From a virus, in IMG/VR virus record IMGVR_UViG_3300041409_000348, positions 39,564 to 103,563 of that record: a stretch of DNA of 64,000 bases, one strand, 5' to 3'. Shown here piece after piece: positions 1,356 through 46,145 of this stretch. The notes below the pieces were generated by a model, which worked only from the letters and a program-made list of their open reading frames with translations, made no database searches and was not told the origin of the DNA. How positions within the stretch are numbered: the first letter of the stretch is position 1; the number at the start of each line of letters is the position of its first letter. Both the position numbers and the translations under genes were made by a program.

Positions 1356-1379
1356 CCGCCAGCGTCCGCCGGGGCAAGC

Positions 1380-2648
1380 GTGGCCATCACACCATCTGGG
1401 GTTCGCGAGATCCCCATAGCCACCCTGACCCGCTTCCCCGGCAACGCCCGGCGCGGCAACGTCGCCGAGATCCGTGCGAGTGTCCGCCGTCTCGGCCAGT
1501 ACCGCACCATCGTGGTCCGCGACACCGGTTCGGATCTGGTGATCCTCGCGGGCAACCACACCGCTGACGCGCTGGCCGCTGAAGGGCATGAGAACGCCCG
1601 GTGTGAGGTCATCACCTGCACCGACGACGAAGCCCGCCGCGTCAACCTGACGGACAACCGGCTCGCGGAGCTGCCGGGACCGGACGGGGAACGGTACGAC
1701 GACGAGGCCCTCGTGGAGCTGCTGTCGTACCTGGACGGCGACTATGAGGGCACCGGGTGGACCGAAGAGGACGTGTCCGCGCTCATCGAGCCACCCGAGG
1801 ACACGCCGGGCGGCAACGGCGACCCGGACGACGCACCGGAACCACCAGCCGAGCCGGTCAGCGCGTTCGGTGACCTCTGGCTGCTCGGGCCGCACCGGCT
1901 GCTCATAGGCGACGCGACCAACCCGGATCACCTGGCGCTGGCAACCGAAGGACTCGGCACGCCGGGCATCGTCTACACCGACCCGCCGTACGGCATAGAC
2001 ATCGTGAGCAGCGCCGGAAAGGTGGGCGCATCCATCGGCTACCCCGTCGGCGGTGCCAAGAACGGCGGTCAAGGCAGCAAGGGCACCGTCCGCACGACCA
2101 GTTATCTGCCCGTCGCTGGGGACGACAGCACCGACGCTGCGGTGGACGCCTTCCGGCTGCTGTATGCGGAGTACCCGGACGCCATGCATATCTGGTGGGG
2201 CGGCAACCACTATGCGGCCTCGGCCGGCCTGCCGGACTCGTCGTGCTGGCTTGTCTGGGACAAGGACACTAACGGCAACTTCGCGGACGCTGAGCTTGCC
2301 TGGACGAGCCATCCCGGCGCGGTACGGCTGCTGCGGCACATGTGGAACGGGATGCTCCGCGCCTCCGAACGCGGCAAGCGTGTCCACCCGACCCAGAAGC
2401 CGGTAGCACTCGCCGAGTGGGCGTTCGGTGTCATCGACCCCAAGGATGAGCGGAGCGTCGTCCTCGACGTGTTCGCGGGCTCAGGATCAACGCTCCTCGC
2501 CGCTCACCGGACCAAACGCACGGCGGCGCTGATCGAGATGGAACCCGCATACGGGGACGTCATCGCCGGACGCTGGGAAGCCTTCACCGGCATCAAACCG
2601 GAGCGTGTCCTGCCCGACGGCACCACCGAACCTGTCTCCTTCACCTGA
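1380..2648 (+). CDS. ParB-like N-terminal domain + N4/N6 DNA methyltransferase
   Basis: ILAGNHT ParB-like motif; DPPYG catalytic motif; HPTQKP; DVFAGSGST SAM-binding motif. Confidence 0.9.
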   Translation: MAITPSGVREIPIATLTRFPGNARRGNVAEIRASVRRLGQYRTIVVRDTGSDLVILAGNHTADALAAEGHENARCEVITCTDDEARRVNLTDNRLAELPGPDGERYDDEALVELLSYLDGDYEGTGWTEEDVSALIEPPEDTPGGNGDPDDAPEPPAEPVSAFGDLWLLGPHRLLIGDATNPDHLALATEGLGTPGIVYTDPPYGIDIVSSAGKVGASIGYPVGGAKNGGQGSKGTVRTTSYLPVAGDDSTDAAVDAFRLLYAEYPDAMHIWWGGNHYAASAGLPDSSCWLVWDKDTNGNFADAELAWTSHPGAVRLLRHMWNGMLRASERGKRVHPTQKPVALAEWAFGVIDPKDERSVVLDVFAGSGSTLLAAHRTKRTAALIEMEPAYGDVIAGRWEAFTGIKPERVLPDGTTEPVSFT

Positions 2649-2698: not shown

Positions 2699-3205
2699 AT
2701 GCCACGCCGCCGCTCCGTCGTCACCCGCGAGAACGACATCCGCGCCATTGACCTGCGCCGGCGCGGCCTCACGTATGAGCAGATCGCCACCCAGATGGGC
2801 TTCCGCGCCACCTCCAGCGCTTATGAAGCCGTCCAGCGGGGCTTGGCCGAGGCGTTCCGTGAGGAAGCCGGCGCGCTCACCCAGATGGAAGCGGAACGCC
2901 TGGACGCCCTGCGGCGCCTGTTCGAGCGGATCGCCGCGACCAAGCATTACGCGGTGTCTCTCGGGTCGGGGAAAGTCATCATGGACCCCGCGAACCCCGG
3001 CCAGCCCCTCACCGACGACGGCCCCGCCATGGCCGCCGGTTTGGCGTTGCTGCGGGTCAGTGAGTCGTGGCGGAAACTCAAGGGCCTCGACGCACCCGCG
3101 AAGTCCCGCGTCGAAGTGGTCACCGCCGACGTGATCGAGTCCGAGATCACGCGCCTGGAGGCAGACCTTGCCGCCAACGACCCCGTACATCCAGGCACCG
3201 GCTGA
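2699..3205 (+). CDS. terS: terminase small subunit (HTH)
   Basis: N-terminal HTH (LRRRGLTYEQIATQMG), C-terminal GLDAP motif, directly upstream of terL. Confidence 0.8.
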   Translation: MPRRRSVVTRENDIRAIDLRRRGLTYEQIATQMGFRATSSAYEAVQRGLAEAFREEAGALTQMEAERLDALRRLFERIAATKHYAVSLGSGKVIMDPANPGQPLTDDGPAMAAGLALLRVSESWRKLKGLDAPAKSRVEVVTADVIESEITRLEADLAANDPVHPGTG

Positions 3206-4877
3206 CCGGCTCCGCTACCTGCGTGAGCTTCAGCGGCAGGCGGCGGAGACCAAGAAGGCCGCATCCCAGCGGTACTACAACGACCCGGTAGCGTTCGCCG
3301 CCGACTGCATCGACTGGCGTGACGGCGCTGGCCTGACCGCCTACCAGCAGGAGATCGTCGGGGACCTGCCGGCCCGTAAGCGCATCAGTGTCCGCAGTCC
3401 CCACGGCACCGGGAAATCGACCACGGCTGCCGTGACCATCTTGTGGTTCGCGCTGACCCGCGAAACGGCGGGTGTGGACTGGAAGGTCGCGACGACCGCC
3501 GGGTCCTGGCATCAGCTGTCCAGATTTTTGTGGCCGGAGATTCACCGCTGGGCGGGCCGGATCCGCTGGGACAAGATACGCGGCAACCAGCCGCTGACCG
3601 CCCATGAGGAACTGAACCTCCGCCTGCGCGGTCACCCGTTCAGCGCCGCTGAGCTGATGAACCTGAACCTGCGCCTCAACCACGGTGCGGCCTTCGCGTC
3701 CGCGTCCGCGAACTCGGCCCTCATCGAAGGCGCCCACGCCGACAGTCTGCTGTTCGTGTTCGACGAGTCCAAGGCGATCCCCGCCGCCACGTTCGACGCC
3801 TGTGAAGGTGCCCTGAACGGCACCGGGGAAGCGTTCGCCCTCGCGCTCTCGACGCCGGGTGCGCCCGCCGGCCGGTTCTACGACATTCAGTCCCGCAAAC
3901 CGGGCTATGAGGACTGGCACGCCGTCCACGTCACCCTTGACCAGGCGATAGCGGCCGGGCAGATCGACCCGGACTGGGCAGCGAACCGGGCCCGCCAGTG
4001 GGGCACCGAATCCAGCATCTACGTCAACCGGGTCCTCGGCGAGTTCCACGCCGGCGATGAGGACAGTGTGATCCCGCTGGCGTGGGCTGAGGCCGCGGTC
4101 GAACGCTGGCTCGAATGGGACCTCGCCGGCCGCCCCGGCACCGAGATGGACTATCCCCGCACCGTCGGTGTGGACGTGGCCCGTGAAGGCATGGACAAGA
4201 CGGTCCTCGCGGTCCGCAACGGCCACGTGCTGACCGAACTGCGCCGGTCGGTGAAGGAAACCACCATGCAGACCACTGGCCGTGTCGCCGGTGTCCTCGA
4301 CGCCGACGCGGCCAGGACCGCGGTCGTGGACGTCATCGGTATCGGCGCGGGTGTCGTGGACCGGCTGCGGGAGATGGGCCACAAGGTGCAGGCGTTCAAC
4401 GCCGCCGCCGGAACCGACCGCCGCGACGTCACCGGCGAACTGGGCTTCCCGAACTCCCGCAGCGCCGCATGGTGGTCGATGCGTGAGCAGCTCGACCCGT
4501 CCGCCGGCTCCACCGTGTGCCTGCCTGATGATGAGATGCTGCTCGGTGACCTGGCCGCGCCGCAGTGGAAAGTCCTGTCCGGCGGCAAAATCCAGGTCGA
4601 GCCGAAAGACGAGATCCGCAAACGCCTCGGCCGGTCCACCGACGACGGCGACGCTGTGGTTCAGGCGTTCTTCTCCCGGTCGATGCCGCATTCGCCGTCG
4701 GCGCGGCAGTGGGCTGTCCACGACGAACTTGAGCGGATGGGCCAGGACCCGTCCGCGCGGATGCGTGCCCGTCCCGGCCAGGACTATGACCGGGACGACA
4801 ACTGGTCCGCGGACTCGTTCGCCCCGCAGGCCGACGACGGCAGACCGGAACGGCCCAACGTGAGGGCATGGCGGTAA
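3168..4877 (+). CDS. terL: terminase large subunit
   Basis: Walker A SPHGTGKST, Walker B FVFDES, nuclease GVDVAREGMD and STDDGDA. Confidence 0.93.
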   Translation: MPPTTPYIQAPADRLRYLRELQRQAAETKKAASQRYYNDPVAFAADCIDWRDGAGLTAYQQEIVGDLPARKRISVRSPHGTGKSTTAAVTILWFALTRETAGVDWKVATTAGSWHQLSRFLWPEIHRWAGRIRWDKIRGNQPLTAHEELNLRLRGHPFSAAELMNLNLRLNHGAAFASASANSALIEGAHADSLLFVFDESKAIPAATFDACEGALNGTGEAFALALSTPGAPAGRFYDIQSRKPGYEDWHAVHVTLDQAIAAGQIDPDWAANRARQWGTESSIYVNRVLGEFHAGDEDSVIPLAWAEAAVERWLEWDLAGRPGTEMDYPRTVGVDVAREGMDKTVLAVRNGHVLTELRRSVKETTMQTTGRVAGVLDADAARTAVVDVIGIGAGVVDRLREMGHKVQAFNAAAGTDRRDVTGELGFPNSRSAAWWSMREQLDPSAGSTVCLPDDEMLLGDLAAPQWKVLSGGKIQVEPKDEIRKRLGRSTDDGDAVVQAFFSRSMPHSPSARQWAVHDELERMGQDPSARMRARPGQDYDRDDNWSADSFAPQADDGRPERPNVRAWR

Positions 4878-4929: not shown

Positions 4930-5214
4930 GTGACTGTCCCCGTGAAAGTCACGGTCCCCGAAACGGTCCTCGCCGCCGTCGATGAGATCCGCGGCGACGA
5001 GTCACGGTCCGCGTGGATCCTCGGCGCGATCGGCCTGCGCCTGTCCCCGCTCGCCGAAGCGGTCGCCGCCGTCATCGAACCCGCCGTCGACCCCGGCAAC
5101 ATCATCCCCACCGCGGTCCTCACCGACCGCCCGTCCGTCCAGGTGTGCAAGCACCCGAAAGCACGGGTACTGCGAGGCTTCTGCGGCGCCTGCGGCACGG
5201 GCGGGCTGGCCTGA
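4930..5214 (+). CDS. RHH-like protein with C-terminal Cys motif
   Basis: SD GGAGG; VKVTVPETVLAAVDEIRGDESRSAWI; CKH...CGAC. Confidence 0.6.
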   Translation: MTVPVKVTVPETVLAAVDEIRGDESRSAWILGAIGLRLSPLAEAVAAVIEPAVDPGNIIPTAVLTDRPSVQVCKHPKARVLRGFCGACGTGGLA

Positions 5215-5455: not shown

Positions 5456-5548
5456 TAGAATGGCCATGTTAAACCCCGGCGAGCGAGGGTGCGCAAACAC
5501 CTGACTCACTCCCGGGGGCGTTCGATCTGGTGAAAGCAGACCGACATG
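5456..5548 (+). promoter_or_regulatory. HNH cassette leader: -10 TAGAAT, long hairpin, RBS hairpin
   Basis: TAGAAT 5456-5461; stem CCCCGG...CCGGGG 5474-5517; 26-bp segment 5523-5548 identical to 24837-24862. Confidence 0.6.
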
Positions 5549-6421
5549 ACCAAGCGTACAGGCGAGGCGTTTGTCTACTACATACGCCGCGGTGACCTGA
5601 TTAAGATCGGGGCGTCGGCCAACATCCGGGTGCGGCTCAGCGCGCAGGCTTATGACGAACTCCTCGCGGTTGAGCCCGGGTACTTCAGCCTTGAGAAGCG
5701 CCGGCACAGGCAGTTCGCCGAACACAAGGAACCCCTGGGTCGCGGCCAGCACGAGTGGTTCAAGCCGGGAGAGACCCTGCTCGGGCACATCGCTGCGATG
5801 CGGGCACTCCACGAGCTGCCTGATCTGTCCACGCGCTACTGCCCGCGTTTGGGCACGACCGCACAGGCCATACTGGCGCTGCTGCCGCCGCTACTGATGC
5901 AAGTTCCGGCCGGCACGATGGAGCGGCTCATAGCCAAGATCGTCATCGACGGCGAGTCGGGATGCTGGAGACGCCCCGTCGGGATCAGCGCCAAGGGCTA
6001 CAGCCAGTTCTGGTTCGGCGGCAAACTGCAAGCAGCGCACCGCGTCTCGCACATCCTGTTCGTCGGCCCCATTCCGGACGGCCACGAGGTCGATCACGTT
6101 AAGGCGCGCGGATGCCGGTTCAAGGACTGCATCCGGCCATCTCACCTTGAAGCCGTGACCGGGCGCGAGAACACACTGCGCGGCGGCAACATGGCCGCCA
6201 TTCACGCCCGCACGACACACTGCCCGCAGGACCACGAGTACACGCCCGAGAACACGTACTTGATCAAGTCCCCAAACGGCAGGGATCGACGCCAGTGCAA
6301 GATCTGCACCAGGGAAAAGGCGCACGAGCGGCATCATCGGCTCAAGACCGACCCGGCATTCCGCGAGACGCGCCGCCTGGGACAACTCAACCGACGGACG
6401 CGCGAGCGCGCCACTAGCTAG
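5546..6421 (+). CDS. T5orf172/GIY-YIG-like + HNH endonuclease
   Basis: VYYIRRGDLIKIG...EKRRHRQF...EWF; AHRVSH...VDH...CIRPSHLEAVTGREN; THCPQDH. Confidence 0.85.
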   Translation: MTKRTGEAFVYYIRRGDLIKIGASANIRVRLSAQAYDELLAVEPGYFSLEKRRHRQFAEHKEPLGRGQHEWFKPGETLLGHIAAMRALHELPDLSTRYCPRLGTTAQAILALLPPLLMQVPAGTMERLIAKIVIDGESGCWRRPVGISAKGYSQFWFGGKLQAAHRVSHILFVGPIPDGHEVDHVKARGCRFKDCIRPSHLEAVTGRENTLRGGNMAAIHARTTHCPQDHEYTPENTYLIKSPNGRDRRQCKICTREKAHERHHRLKTDPAFRETRRLGQLNRRTRERATS

Positions 6422-6442
6422 CGGCGGGGGGTGAGATTGAAG

Positions 6443-7985
6443 ATGTCACCCCAAGACCCCCAGAAGGCGCGGATCGTGGCGTTCCCCGACTTGAAGCCGG
6501 CGACACGCCATGACCTTATGCGCGGGGAGCTCGGCACCGAGTTCGACCGCAACCAGATGTTCGGCCTGTACTCGGGTGGTGATGTCTTCTTAGTCCGACT
6601 ACGGCACCGCCACTGCCCGGGACTTCCAGACCATGCTCAGCCGCGACGGCCAGGCCGCGGCGCTCGAGGCGGTCCTGACGCTGCCGATCCGGCAGGCGTC
6701 CCGCGCGATCGAGCCCGGCAAGAACGACAGCGGCGAGGCCGATTTCTGCCACTCGGTGCTGTTCGCGCCGCACACCTCGGGCGGCATGAGCACCCCGATG
6801 CAGGACGTGATCGGGCAGGTCACCTCGGCGCAGATTTTCAAGCTCGCCTTCTTTGAGCTCTGCTGGAAGATCCGGGAGCGGGACGGCGGGGTCGCCATCG
6901 ACAAGATGGCCTACCGGCCGCCGGCGACCTGTGAGCTGAAGCGGGACGCCCGCACGGGCGCGATGGACGGGTTCCGGCAGCAGGTGTGGCAGTTCGGCGG
7001 CAACCTCAAGCAGGACAAGGCATCCAAACTGCCCGGCTACGTCGAGATCCCCAAGATCAAGTCGTATGTCCACGTCAACGGCCGGCACCGGCAGCCCCTC
7101 ACCGGCACCAGTGAGCTTGAGCTGACGCACTGGGTCCACCAGACCAAGCTCAAATTGCTGTACCTCTGGTTCCAGTTCCTGGAGCAGCAGAGCCTGCCGA
7201 AGGTCATCGTGTACGGCCAGGACCAGCGGGAAGCCAACGCGAAGGCCGACGACATCGCCTCGATGCGATCGTCCGGTGTCGTGGGGTTCGCCCGCGACCC
7301 GCAGGGCGCCAAGTCGTTTGAGATCCTGGAGTCCTCGGGCTCGAAGGGTGCCACTCAGTTCGCTGACGCCCTGTCGTTCCTTGAAACGTGGCAGACCGCG
7401 AGCGTCCTGGCCGGGTTCACGGGCCTGTCCTCGCTCGCGGCGATGGGCCGCGGTTCCCTCGCGTTGTCGCAGGACCAGTCGGCGTTCTTCCTGAAGTCCC
7501 GGCAGGCCATCAGCCTGGAGATCGCCGAGTCCATCACCCACGAGGTCATCGCCCCGCTGGTGACCCTGAACTTCGGGCCGGGCGCGAGCTATCCGCGGTT
7601 CACGTTCGGGGCCCTGTCGGATGAGTCCGGCTCCCAGCTGGTCACCTTGTTCCAGGCTCTCGCGGTCGCACCCGCGTTGCAGGTGCCGGCGGGGATCCTG
7701 GACATCATCACGGAACGTCTGGCGACGTTCCTGAACCTGGACGTGGATGCGGTGACGCAGATCGTGCAGCAGGGTGCGAAGGACCGTGAGGCGCAGGCGG
7801 TCGCGCAGGCCCCGGCGGGGATGCCGCAGCAGTCGGCGGCGGCGCTGGGGCATCTGGCGGGGGGAACAGCGGCGGCGGCGGCGATAGCGAAGAAGGCTTT
7901 GGCGCATGCCGGTAACCAGCCACTGCCGGAGGACATCATGCAGCCGTTCGACGTGCCGAACATGAGCGTGAACCCGAAGGCGTGA
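6443..7985 (+). CDS. portal protein (DUF935/Mu gp29-like), split by a +1 discontinuity at TTA 6590-6592
   Basis: Position after terL; N-terminal part 6443-6589 and main ORF resuming at 6597 (DYGTATARDFQTMLSRDGQ...); main ORF in track is 6633..7985. Confidence 0.85.
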
Positions 7986-7989
7986 GGCT

Positions 7990-8673
7990 GTGACCACGCC
8001 CGCCGCGCAAACCCAGCCACCGCAGCAGCAGGCCCCGCAGCAGCAGCAGGACGACACCGCCGCTGACGCTGCCCTGATCGCCCTCATCGTCGCTGCCCTC
8101 GCCGCCTACGGCACCGCACAGGCCCTCACAGGCGCGCTGAAGGCCCCGTTCAAGGCTGCGGGCATCTCCGGTGCGGCGTTGTCCGCGATCGCCGCCCTAG
8201 CCGTCTCCGCCCCGCAGGACGCCGTCAAGGGCACCGGCCCGGCGTCCCGGTGGGCGCTGCGGAACAACCTGCTGCGGCGCGCTCAGTTCGTTCTGGCGGC
8301 GTCGCGGCGTGTCCAGCAGGCGGTGAAGGCGGCACGGTCCCAGAACGAGCCGGCGATGACCGCGATCCGGGACGCGCTGGCCACGGAGAAGCAGTATCTC
8401 GGGCAGCACATCGCGGCCAGCGAGGGCCGTGTGGACGCAGCCTCATCCGTGGACAGCGCGGCGGCGAAGCACGGGAAGCTGCTCGGCTGGCAAGCGACCA
8501 AAGACAAAAGGTGCACGCCGGGCTGTGCTGCCGCGTCAGGCTCCAACTTCAAGGCGGACCGGCCTCCGATCGTGGAAGGTCACCCGGCGTTCCCCGGCAT
8601 GGTCCACGGGGCGACGTGCCGGTGTATCCCGGTCGCGCCGTTCAAGGGCGCTAAGGTGCTGCCGTCATCCTGA
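7990..8673 (+). CDS. MuF-like head morphogenesis protein
   Basis: LGWQATKDKRCTPGC...PGMVHGATCRC; follows portal. Confidence 0.8.
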   Translation: MTTPAAQTQPPQQQAPQQQQDDTAADAALIALIVAALAAYGTAQALTGALKAPFKAAGISGAALSAIAALAVSAPQDAVKGTGPASRWALRNNLLRRAQFVLAASRRVQQAVKAARSQNEPAMTAIRDALATEKQYLGQHIAASEGRVDAASSVDSAAAKHGKLLGWQATKDKRCTPGCAAASGSNFKADRPPIVEGHPAFPGMVHGATCRCIPVAPFKGAKVLPSS

Positions 8674-45978: not shown

Positions 45979-46145
45979 GCCTCGCTTCCCTCGCGGTTCT
46001 CGTGGCGTTCGCGGTACTCGGCCAGCGCCTCGTTGAGGATGACCTTGAGGTCTACGTCCCGCCGCTCGGCCTCGGCCCGCACCCATGCCGAATCCTCGGC
46101 CGGCGGGTGCCAGCCGAGCATCGGCGTCTTGTGCTGGTTAGGCAT
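45975..46145 (-). CDS. Arc/RHH-like repressor (56 aa, not in ORF track)
   Basis: MPNQHKTPMLGWHPPAEDSAWVRAEAERRDVDLKVILNEALAEYR. Confidence 0.7.
   Translation of the reverse strand: MPNQHKTPMLGWHPPAEDSAWVRAEAERRDVDLKVILNEALAEYRERHENREGSEA

Follow-up and report, generated by a model that had tools for sequence, protein, structure and literature searches.

How is a full-length portal protein made from a gene whose two parts lie in different reading frames? This question is raised by a stretch of 64,000 nucleotides (nt; hereafter, the window) with a G+C content of 65-75%, which forms the 3' 64 kb of IMGVR_UViG_3300041409_000348, a 103,563-bp IMG/VR virus record of an uncultured soil actinophage with direct terminal repeats and a completeness rating of 100%. 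Based on the gene structure and on comparisons with related portal genes, the portal protein is probably made by programmed translational bypassing triggered by the codon UUA, in which ribosomes would hop over seven nucleotides near the start of the gene.

A portal gene interrupted by seven bases

The portal gene comprises two coding segments and the bases between them (amino acids, aa):

6443..6589, plus strand: portal segment 1, 49 codons (MSPQDPQKARIVAFPDL...GGDVF), the last being the proposed take-off codon TTC; collinear with the N-termini of intact homologues
6590..6596, plus strand: coding gap TTAGTCC, with TTA at 6590-6592, a +1-frame stop TAG at 6591-6593 and the proposed landing triplet TCC at 6594-6596; absent in contiguous homologues
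6597..7985, plus strand: portal segment 2, starting with the proposed resume codon GAC, 462 codons plus stop; segments 1 and 2 together encode a 511-aa portal

From the start codon ATG at 6443, 49 codons lead to ...GLYSGGDVF, ending at TTC 6587-6589, and the next in-frame triplet is TTA. A preliminary description of this stretch had read GAT GTC TTC TTA GTC C GAC TAC at 6581-6602 and regarded the portal gene as broken at the TTA. The letters are exactly so, and the N-terminal frame does meet TTA at 6590, but it is not ended there and reads through to 6856. The same description had placed the portal body in the +1 frame, with a TAG blocking a simple +1 slip, and both features are present in the sequence: this frame is shut by TAG 6591-6593, stays open between TCC 6594 and the stop codon at 7983-7985, and has its first start codon at ATG 6633.

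Pfam Portal_Mu (PF06074) is matched by the portal body with E=9.8e-30 and 104 bits, where the cut-off is 23.9, and identity to annotated Streptomyces phage portal proteins is 40%. The order of the head module, which has TerL on the 5' side of the portal gene and a Mu F-like gene on the 3' side, fits a Mu-like portal. Homology to portal proteins (tblastn, HMMER) begins at the D of DYG (6597), 12 codons before ATG 6633. Close homologues of 507-511 aa are unbroken across the junction (for example, P0008 reads ...GLYSGGDVFDYGTYTARDF...), and their alignment with the two window segments has exactly the contiguous GDVF-DYGT that had been predicted. Because the homologues are contiguous at GGDVF-DYGT, the window gene contains exactly seven extra bases.

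The insert is real and did not arise in assembly. In 6581-6602, Logan contigs from the likely source run (X1) and from two further soil studies agree with the window letter for letter and have 0 gaps where they span the junction, in a check made on assembled contigs, so that minority variants without the 7 nt could go unseen. Record 15 of X2 (covering 6531-6778) and record 20 of X3 (covering 6427-6710) both cross the junction without an indel, and the sole differing letters in these two contigs are at 6530, 6611, 6614 and 6629. The objection that a sequencing indel might have produced the frame break is answered by the presence of the 7 nt in contigs of all three studies.

Gaps led by TTA in related portal genes

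Portal relatives were drawn from IMG/VR, JGI/ENA metagenomes and GTDB genomes, duplicates were removed, and the N-terminus was judged in 103 loci. Comparable gaps were found in 16 of these 103 distinct loci (17 of 104 with the window), all within the same 45-codon N-terminal stretch. Including that of the window, there are 19 gaps (17 distinct) at six sites, with lengths of 4, 5, 7, 8, 10, 11, 14 and 15 nt and frame offsets of +1, +2 and 0. The first triplet of the gap is an in-frame TTA directly after the last homologous codon in 18 of the 19 cases, and the stop TAG in one. The gaps are given below by site, written as take-off codon [gap] resume codon, or as the bracketed sequence alone:

Between QF and D: L176 TTC[TTAATGGGTC]GAC
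Between GT and E: L005, L097, L099 ACT[TTAGGCT]GAG
Between YY and G: L176 TAT[TTAT]GGC; L173 TAC[TAGTCAAC]GGC
Between VF and D: window TTC[TTAGTCC]GAC; L028 [TTACCTCC]; L069 [TTACCTTC]; L030 [TTACCCGGTTC]; L031 [TTACATAGCGCCTC]; L137 [TTAACGTAGCTATTT]; L176 [TTAACGGGTC]; L178 [TTAACAGGTC]
Between DY and G: L062, L079, L110 TAY[TTAA]GGN; L174 TAT[TTAAC]GGG
Between YG and E: L168 GGT[TTACCGGC]GAG

Outside these gaps TTA is exceptionally rare, with one in-frame occurrence in the 49,062 codons (~4,400 of them for leucine) of 125 distinct portal bodies. It is also the rarest sense codon in the predicted genes of the phage (at most 12/25,843). The landing triplets are similarly distinctive: all 19 fit the take-off codon at two or more of three positions, against a background share of 22.7% for nearby triplets at that match level, and five of the 19 are cognate (TTC/TTC twice, TTC/TTT, TAT/TAT and GGT/GGC).

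The flanking coding sequence is conserved on both sides of the junction, where the motif D-[VI]-[FL]-D-Y-G shows no length variation in ~87 gapless relatives. The ratio of nonsynonymous to synonymous substitution rates (dN/dS) of the segments 5' of the gaps ranges from 0.12 to 0.40 between gap-bearing pairs (window vs L028: 0.31), and over 49 codons the window gene differs from that of gapless L083 at 35 nt and in 6 residues, showing purifying selection on these upstream segments.

Several relatives carry gaps of unusual construction. L137 (IMGVR_UViG_3300032782_000294, 1480-1505) has a 15-nt in-frame gap, TTAACGTAGCTATTT, that holds a TAG and lies between TTC and GAC, with TTC/TTT as a cognate take-off/landing pair. 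In L031, a body-frame TAG lies inside the gap. L176 (IMGVR_UViG_3300036782_000067, 1390-1518) contains three TTA-led gaps of 10, 4 and 10 nt within ~30 codons; these sum to 24 nt, so that the first and last segments share a frame and the middle pieces comprise 11-12 codons. The gap that opens with TAG, TAGTCAAC, follows TAC TAC in L173 (IMGVR_UViG_3300036795_000133, a 124,995-bp contig, 1462-1480) and suggests that, as in T4 gene 60, any slow codon at the ribosome's A site may serve.

On the portal tree the genes with gaps lie dispersed, and its well-supported branches require at least 9 changes. The identical gap TTAGGCT is found at the same codon in three non-sister lineages (L005, L097 and L099), each beside gapless relatives, which suggests recombinational spread or repeated, precise loss.

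Three further loci differ from this pattern. In L075 (Ga0318516_10055284, 1040-1060), the portal frame is broken by a T-run that is longer by two T (CAG TTT[TT]GAC), with no TTA involved, and this 2-nt insertion was excluded from the gap counts for that reason; it may represent either a homopolymer error or a U5 site for a +2/-1 slip, and a weak HNH-like match lies upstream. The upstream sequence of L080 departs from the portal family pattern. The portal gene of L015 (IMGVR_UViG_3300043661_000050, 1400-1510; P0024, 801 aa) appears to hold an intein, given an upstream sequence that ends in ...FIVTHN directly before portal C-YQTKLK.

Bypassing as the probable route to the portal protein

Given a TTA-led 7-nt insert in the window and differently built inserts in 16 relatives, a stall followed by a hop is the most likely explanation. 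Translation would initiate at ATG 6443 and proceed for 49 codons, bringing peptidyl-tRNA-Phe onto UUC (6587-6589) with UUA, the rarest codon of the phage, in the A site and no phage-borne tRNA to read it (no tRNA genes were found in the phage genome). During the resulting stall the peptidyl-tRNA would let go, the mRNA would slide by 7 nt, and the tRNA would re-pair at the near-cognate UCC (6594-6596). Decoding would then restart at GAC 6597 and yield a 511-aa portal with the ...GDVF-DYGT... junction that is normal for the family. Ribosomes that decode UUA would instead continue in the wrong frame without producing portal. We infer the stall, the hop and how efficient it is. The preliminary description had proposed this same path (TTC take-off, TTA in the A site, 7-nt hop, TCC landing and GAC resumption), which is supported here as the sole model that fits both the window and the 18 gaps in 16 related portals. 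For all of these gaps a shared scheme can be envisaged, in which a slow A-site codon would lead to peptidyl-tRNA release, a short slide and re-pairing at the first acceptable triplet. The portal is present in 12 copies per virion, and because so few copies are needed, a low-yield event may suffice.

Several points weigh against bypassing. The rarity of UUA was measured in phage genes, and a limiting supply of tRNA-Leu(UAA) in the host is presumed. The nominal P of the landing-triplet match (~1e-11) treats related sequences as independent and is inflated by placement freedom where flanks repeat; the match is far from chance even though this P is overstated. The landing codon of the window is of the weakest near-cognate kind, with UCC mismatching tRNA-Phe at the middle position (a 2-of-3 match, UUC to UCC). 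Stimulatory RNA structure was not detected in 106-nt minimum-free-energy folds of six gap sites (z of -0.9 to +1.3 vs shuffles). Finally, the Shine-Dalgarno-like GGUGGUGA (GGTGGTGA) upstream of the take-off codon is indistinguishable from conserved Gly-Gly-Asp codons.

In a genome-wide scan for more TTA-linked frame switches, the portal site alone qualified. A TTAG at window 46138-46145, considered as a second frame switch, is a gene boundary on the minus strand, where one gene stops with TAA and the next starts with ATG, and candidates at genome positions 31233 and 8254 look like gene boundaries as well.

Comparison with known recoding systems

The preliminary description had pointed to a precedent for UUA-associated bypassing in Streptomyces phages, and one exists in the phiHau3 terminase, for which UUA-mediated bypass was proposed by Smith et al. 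2013 (PMC3807479) and partly tested by Antonov et al. 2023 (PMC10732093). Two 10-nt gaps occur in phiHau3 and a 7-nt gap in an S. catenulae prophage terminase, and the StrepC.1 prophage is also among the reported cases (PMC3807479, PMC10732093). The phiHau3 sites, read from sequence, are GGC[TTACTCCGGT]AAG and TCT[TTAACGGTCC]ACG, of which the second resembles the TTAACGGGTC gaps of L176. For a UAA variant expressed in E. coli, the junction peptide was identified by mass spectrometry, and recoding was doubled when the gap was given a +1-frame stop (PMC10732093); the window gap naturally holds such a stop.

The terminase cases and the window share the kind of gene affected, which belongs to a high-GC actinophage, is essential and serves packaging at low copy number. 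A few extra bases split it (7 or 10 nt in the terminases, 7 nt in the portal). This insert opens with an in-frame TTA and ends in a triplet that the take-off tRNA can read, or nearly so, and the junction is conserved in intact homologues. However, the gene is a terminase there and a portal here, in an unrelated uncultured 103-kb phage known from sequence alone. Landing is synonymous in phiHau3 (GGC to GGU, UCU to UCC), whereas it would be near-cognate in the window (UUC to UCC). The frequencies also differ: UUA with a gap was found in only 3/100 surveyed terminase genes (PMC10732093), compared to 17/104 portals at six sites.

T4 gene 60 has a 50-nt bypass gap and an associated mobile endonuclease (PMC5009743, PMC10732093, bioRxiv 10.1101/2022.08.31.505936). 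Peptidyl-tRNA take-off, a slide along the mRNA and resumption after a landing triplet would be common to both systems, and a homing-type nuclease gene is adjacent in each. In contrast to gene 60, the window gap is 7 nt rather than 50 nt, UUC/UCC take the place of matched GGA codons, and the A site would hold a rare sense codon where gene 60 has a stop (L173 has TAG). Neither a take-off hairpin nor a nascent-peptide signal was identified in the window gene, which does not fit the T4 gene 60 type.

Hungry-codon and stop-hopping constructs in E. coli (Weiss et al. 1987; Gallant and Lindsley), as far as they are summarised in PMC10732093, share hops of a few nt, a slow A-site codon and re-pairing at a nearby similar triplet. 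Those are laboratory arrangements of low efficiency according to the same summary, whereas the window arrangement is natural, conserved, recurrent and in an essential gene. In mycobacteriophage Bxb1, UUA-associated bypass or frameshift has been suggested for the primase gp50/gp51 (PMC12646305). As in the window, a rare UUA lies there at the overlap of two open reading frames (ORFs) that jointly match one actinophage protein, but the gene is another one, the mechanism is undecided and no family-wide set of gaps is described.

A literature search found no paper describing a UUA-led bypass in a portal gene. To our knowledge, natural translational bypassing is among the rarest departures from standard decoding, documented in T4 gene 60 and its relatives, in yeast mitochondrial byps and in the partly tested phiHau3 terminase, and UUA-led hopping has so far been published only for a few Streptomyces phage terminase genes. 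Judged by its sequence features, the portal case would join a kind that is known from few documented cases, and comparative support for it is much richer. With 19 gaps, the portal family greatly exceeds the three published terminase cases as material for comparison and makes several questions testable: the slide distance, the tolerated landing mismatch, the gating of virion assembly by UUA scarcity, and protection from homing nucleases. It also matters for annotation, given that such portals are now entered as truncated proteins of 447-462 aa.

Other explanations of the frame break

A programmed +1 frameshift is an unlikely explanation. UUA and GUC would be decoded, and a +1 shift at GUC_C before CGA would give ...DVF-LV-DYG... 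with two extra residues, in keeping with an insert of 7 nt (two codons plus one base) and with the low frequency of CGA in the phage (2.2 per 1000). Three relatives at site A have a 0-frame stop TGA after TTA GGC, recalling shifty stops, and the phiHau3 authors were unable to exclude +1 shifting from sequence alone. Known programmed +1 frameshifts (prfB, CUU_UGA_C; yeast Ty1, CUU_AGG_C; PMC5009743) likewise change frame by +1 at a slow A-site codon. In the window, however, UUC_UUA allows no overlapping re-pairing, a shift at UUC_U meets the TAG that shuts the +1 frame at once, and GUC_C permits no +1 re-pairing. The relatives require +2 and in-frame jumps in addition to +1. The in-frame, stop-holding gap of L137, the body-frame TAG inside the gap of L031 and the triple gap of L176 show that frameshifting cannot rescue some of the gaps. 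DVFDYG is also highly conserved and length-invariant in the ~87 gapless relatives, to a degree that makes added residues appear unlikely.

A split or truncated portal, in which the 49-residue piece is dispensable or separate and a shorter portal starts at ATG 6633, is very improbable. Gene callers do record 447-462-aa proteins at such loci (P0002, P0009, P0030, P0036, P0037 and P0023, the last recorded on 41 contigs), and the Pfam Portal_Mu match lies wholly 3' of the gap. However, ATG 6633 is not preceded by a Shine-Dalgarno motif, a start there would lose the 12 conserved codons DYGTATARDFQT, and at the other gap sites there is no start codon after the gap. The middle pieces of L176, with their 11-12 codons, cannot be genes, and the upstream segments of gap-bearing genes stay under purifying selection. 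A split gene would also leave the TTA or stop at the head of every gap unexplained.

A dead gene or artefact, whether a defective genome that gained 7 nt at random or an error of assembly, is scarcely credible even for a genome assembled from a metagenome. Contigs of three studies agree in these bases, the 103.6-kb record is a complete genome that has terminal repeats and one TTA-associated frame break alone, and random indels would not open with TTA 18/19 times in a 68% GC gene.

Gene neighbourhood and the origin of the gap

The genes and signals surrounding the portal gene are as follows:

3168..4877, plus strand: large terminase gene (phrog_2 terminase large subunit, E=2e-30), contiguous, without a gap
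4930-5214: small ORF, from the ORF list
5546..6421, plus strand: homing-type endonuclease gene, T5orf172/GIY-YIG-like N-terminus plus HNH_3
6426..6435, plus strand: Shine-Dalgarno-like GGGGGGTGAG, 7 nt 5' of the portal start codon, read from the sequence
7990..8673, plus strand: Mu F-like head morphogenesis gene (Pfam Phage_Mu_F, E=1.5e-5, under the curated cut-off)

The product of the gene at 5546..6421 matches Pfam HNH_3 (E=1.8e-9), T5orf172 (weakly) and the HNH endonuclease family phrog_826 (E=8.8e-40).

If the portal is made by bypassing, two rationales for the gap compete. By analogy with bldA in Streptomyces, portal synthesis could plausibly be tied to the state of the host via scarce tRNA-Leu(UAA), which would act as a sensor. 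Alternatively, and compatibly with bypassing, the gap may be not a sensor of host development but an immunity mark that destroys the target of the upstream homing-type endonuclease, as proposed for T4 gene 60; we regard this as possible but doubtful. A distance of 22 nt separates the end of the endonuclease gene from the portal start, and many relatives have related GIY-YIG-like/NUMOD3 or HNH_3 genes at the same spot. Upstream nuclease-like ORFs, detected as homologues of a seven-protein panel, are present at 6/13 gap-bearing vs 10/83 gapless loci (odds ratio 6.3, Fisher p=0.007; an earlier smaller test of adjacency gave p=0.069), and identical gaps in non-sister lineages are expected under recombinational spread. 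On the other hand, 7 gap-bearing loci are without a detectable nuclease and 10 nuclease-bearing loci are without a gap, and an underpowered tree-aware test on independent pairs found ~3 pairs the same way, 1 opposite and 5 with no difference (p ~0.6). The link between the gaps and the adjacent homing-type endonuclease is no more than suggestive.

Tentatively, short gaps led by TTA or a stop might be in general use among soil actinophages, as a possibly mobile device that arises or spreads where homing endonucleases cut. The target would be lost while hopping left the protein unchanged, producing a nuclease-immune allele. If true, the six sites and 17 distinct gaps of the portal family would make it a natural library of bypass sites graded in length and landing match.

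Free-standing genes for homing-type endonucleases have a hot spot in the spacer between the terminase and portal genes and come in two builds, in which a T5orf172/GIY-YIG-like part is combined with either NUMOD3 or HNH_3. Such genes were seen at window 5546-6421 and in the upstream flanks of L004, L006, L028, L072, L078, L087, L088 and L102.

The nearest genome hits are metagenome-assembled genomes of Streptosporangiaceae (54-55% identity). Upstream of the terminase gene, window 1356-2648 encodes a ParB-like domain fused to a DNA methyltransferase (phrog_498, E=1e-66).

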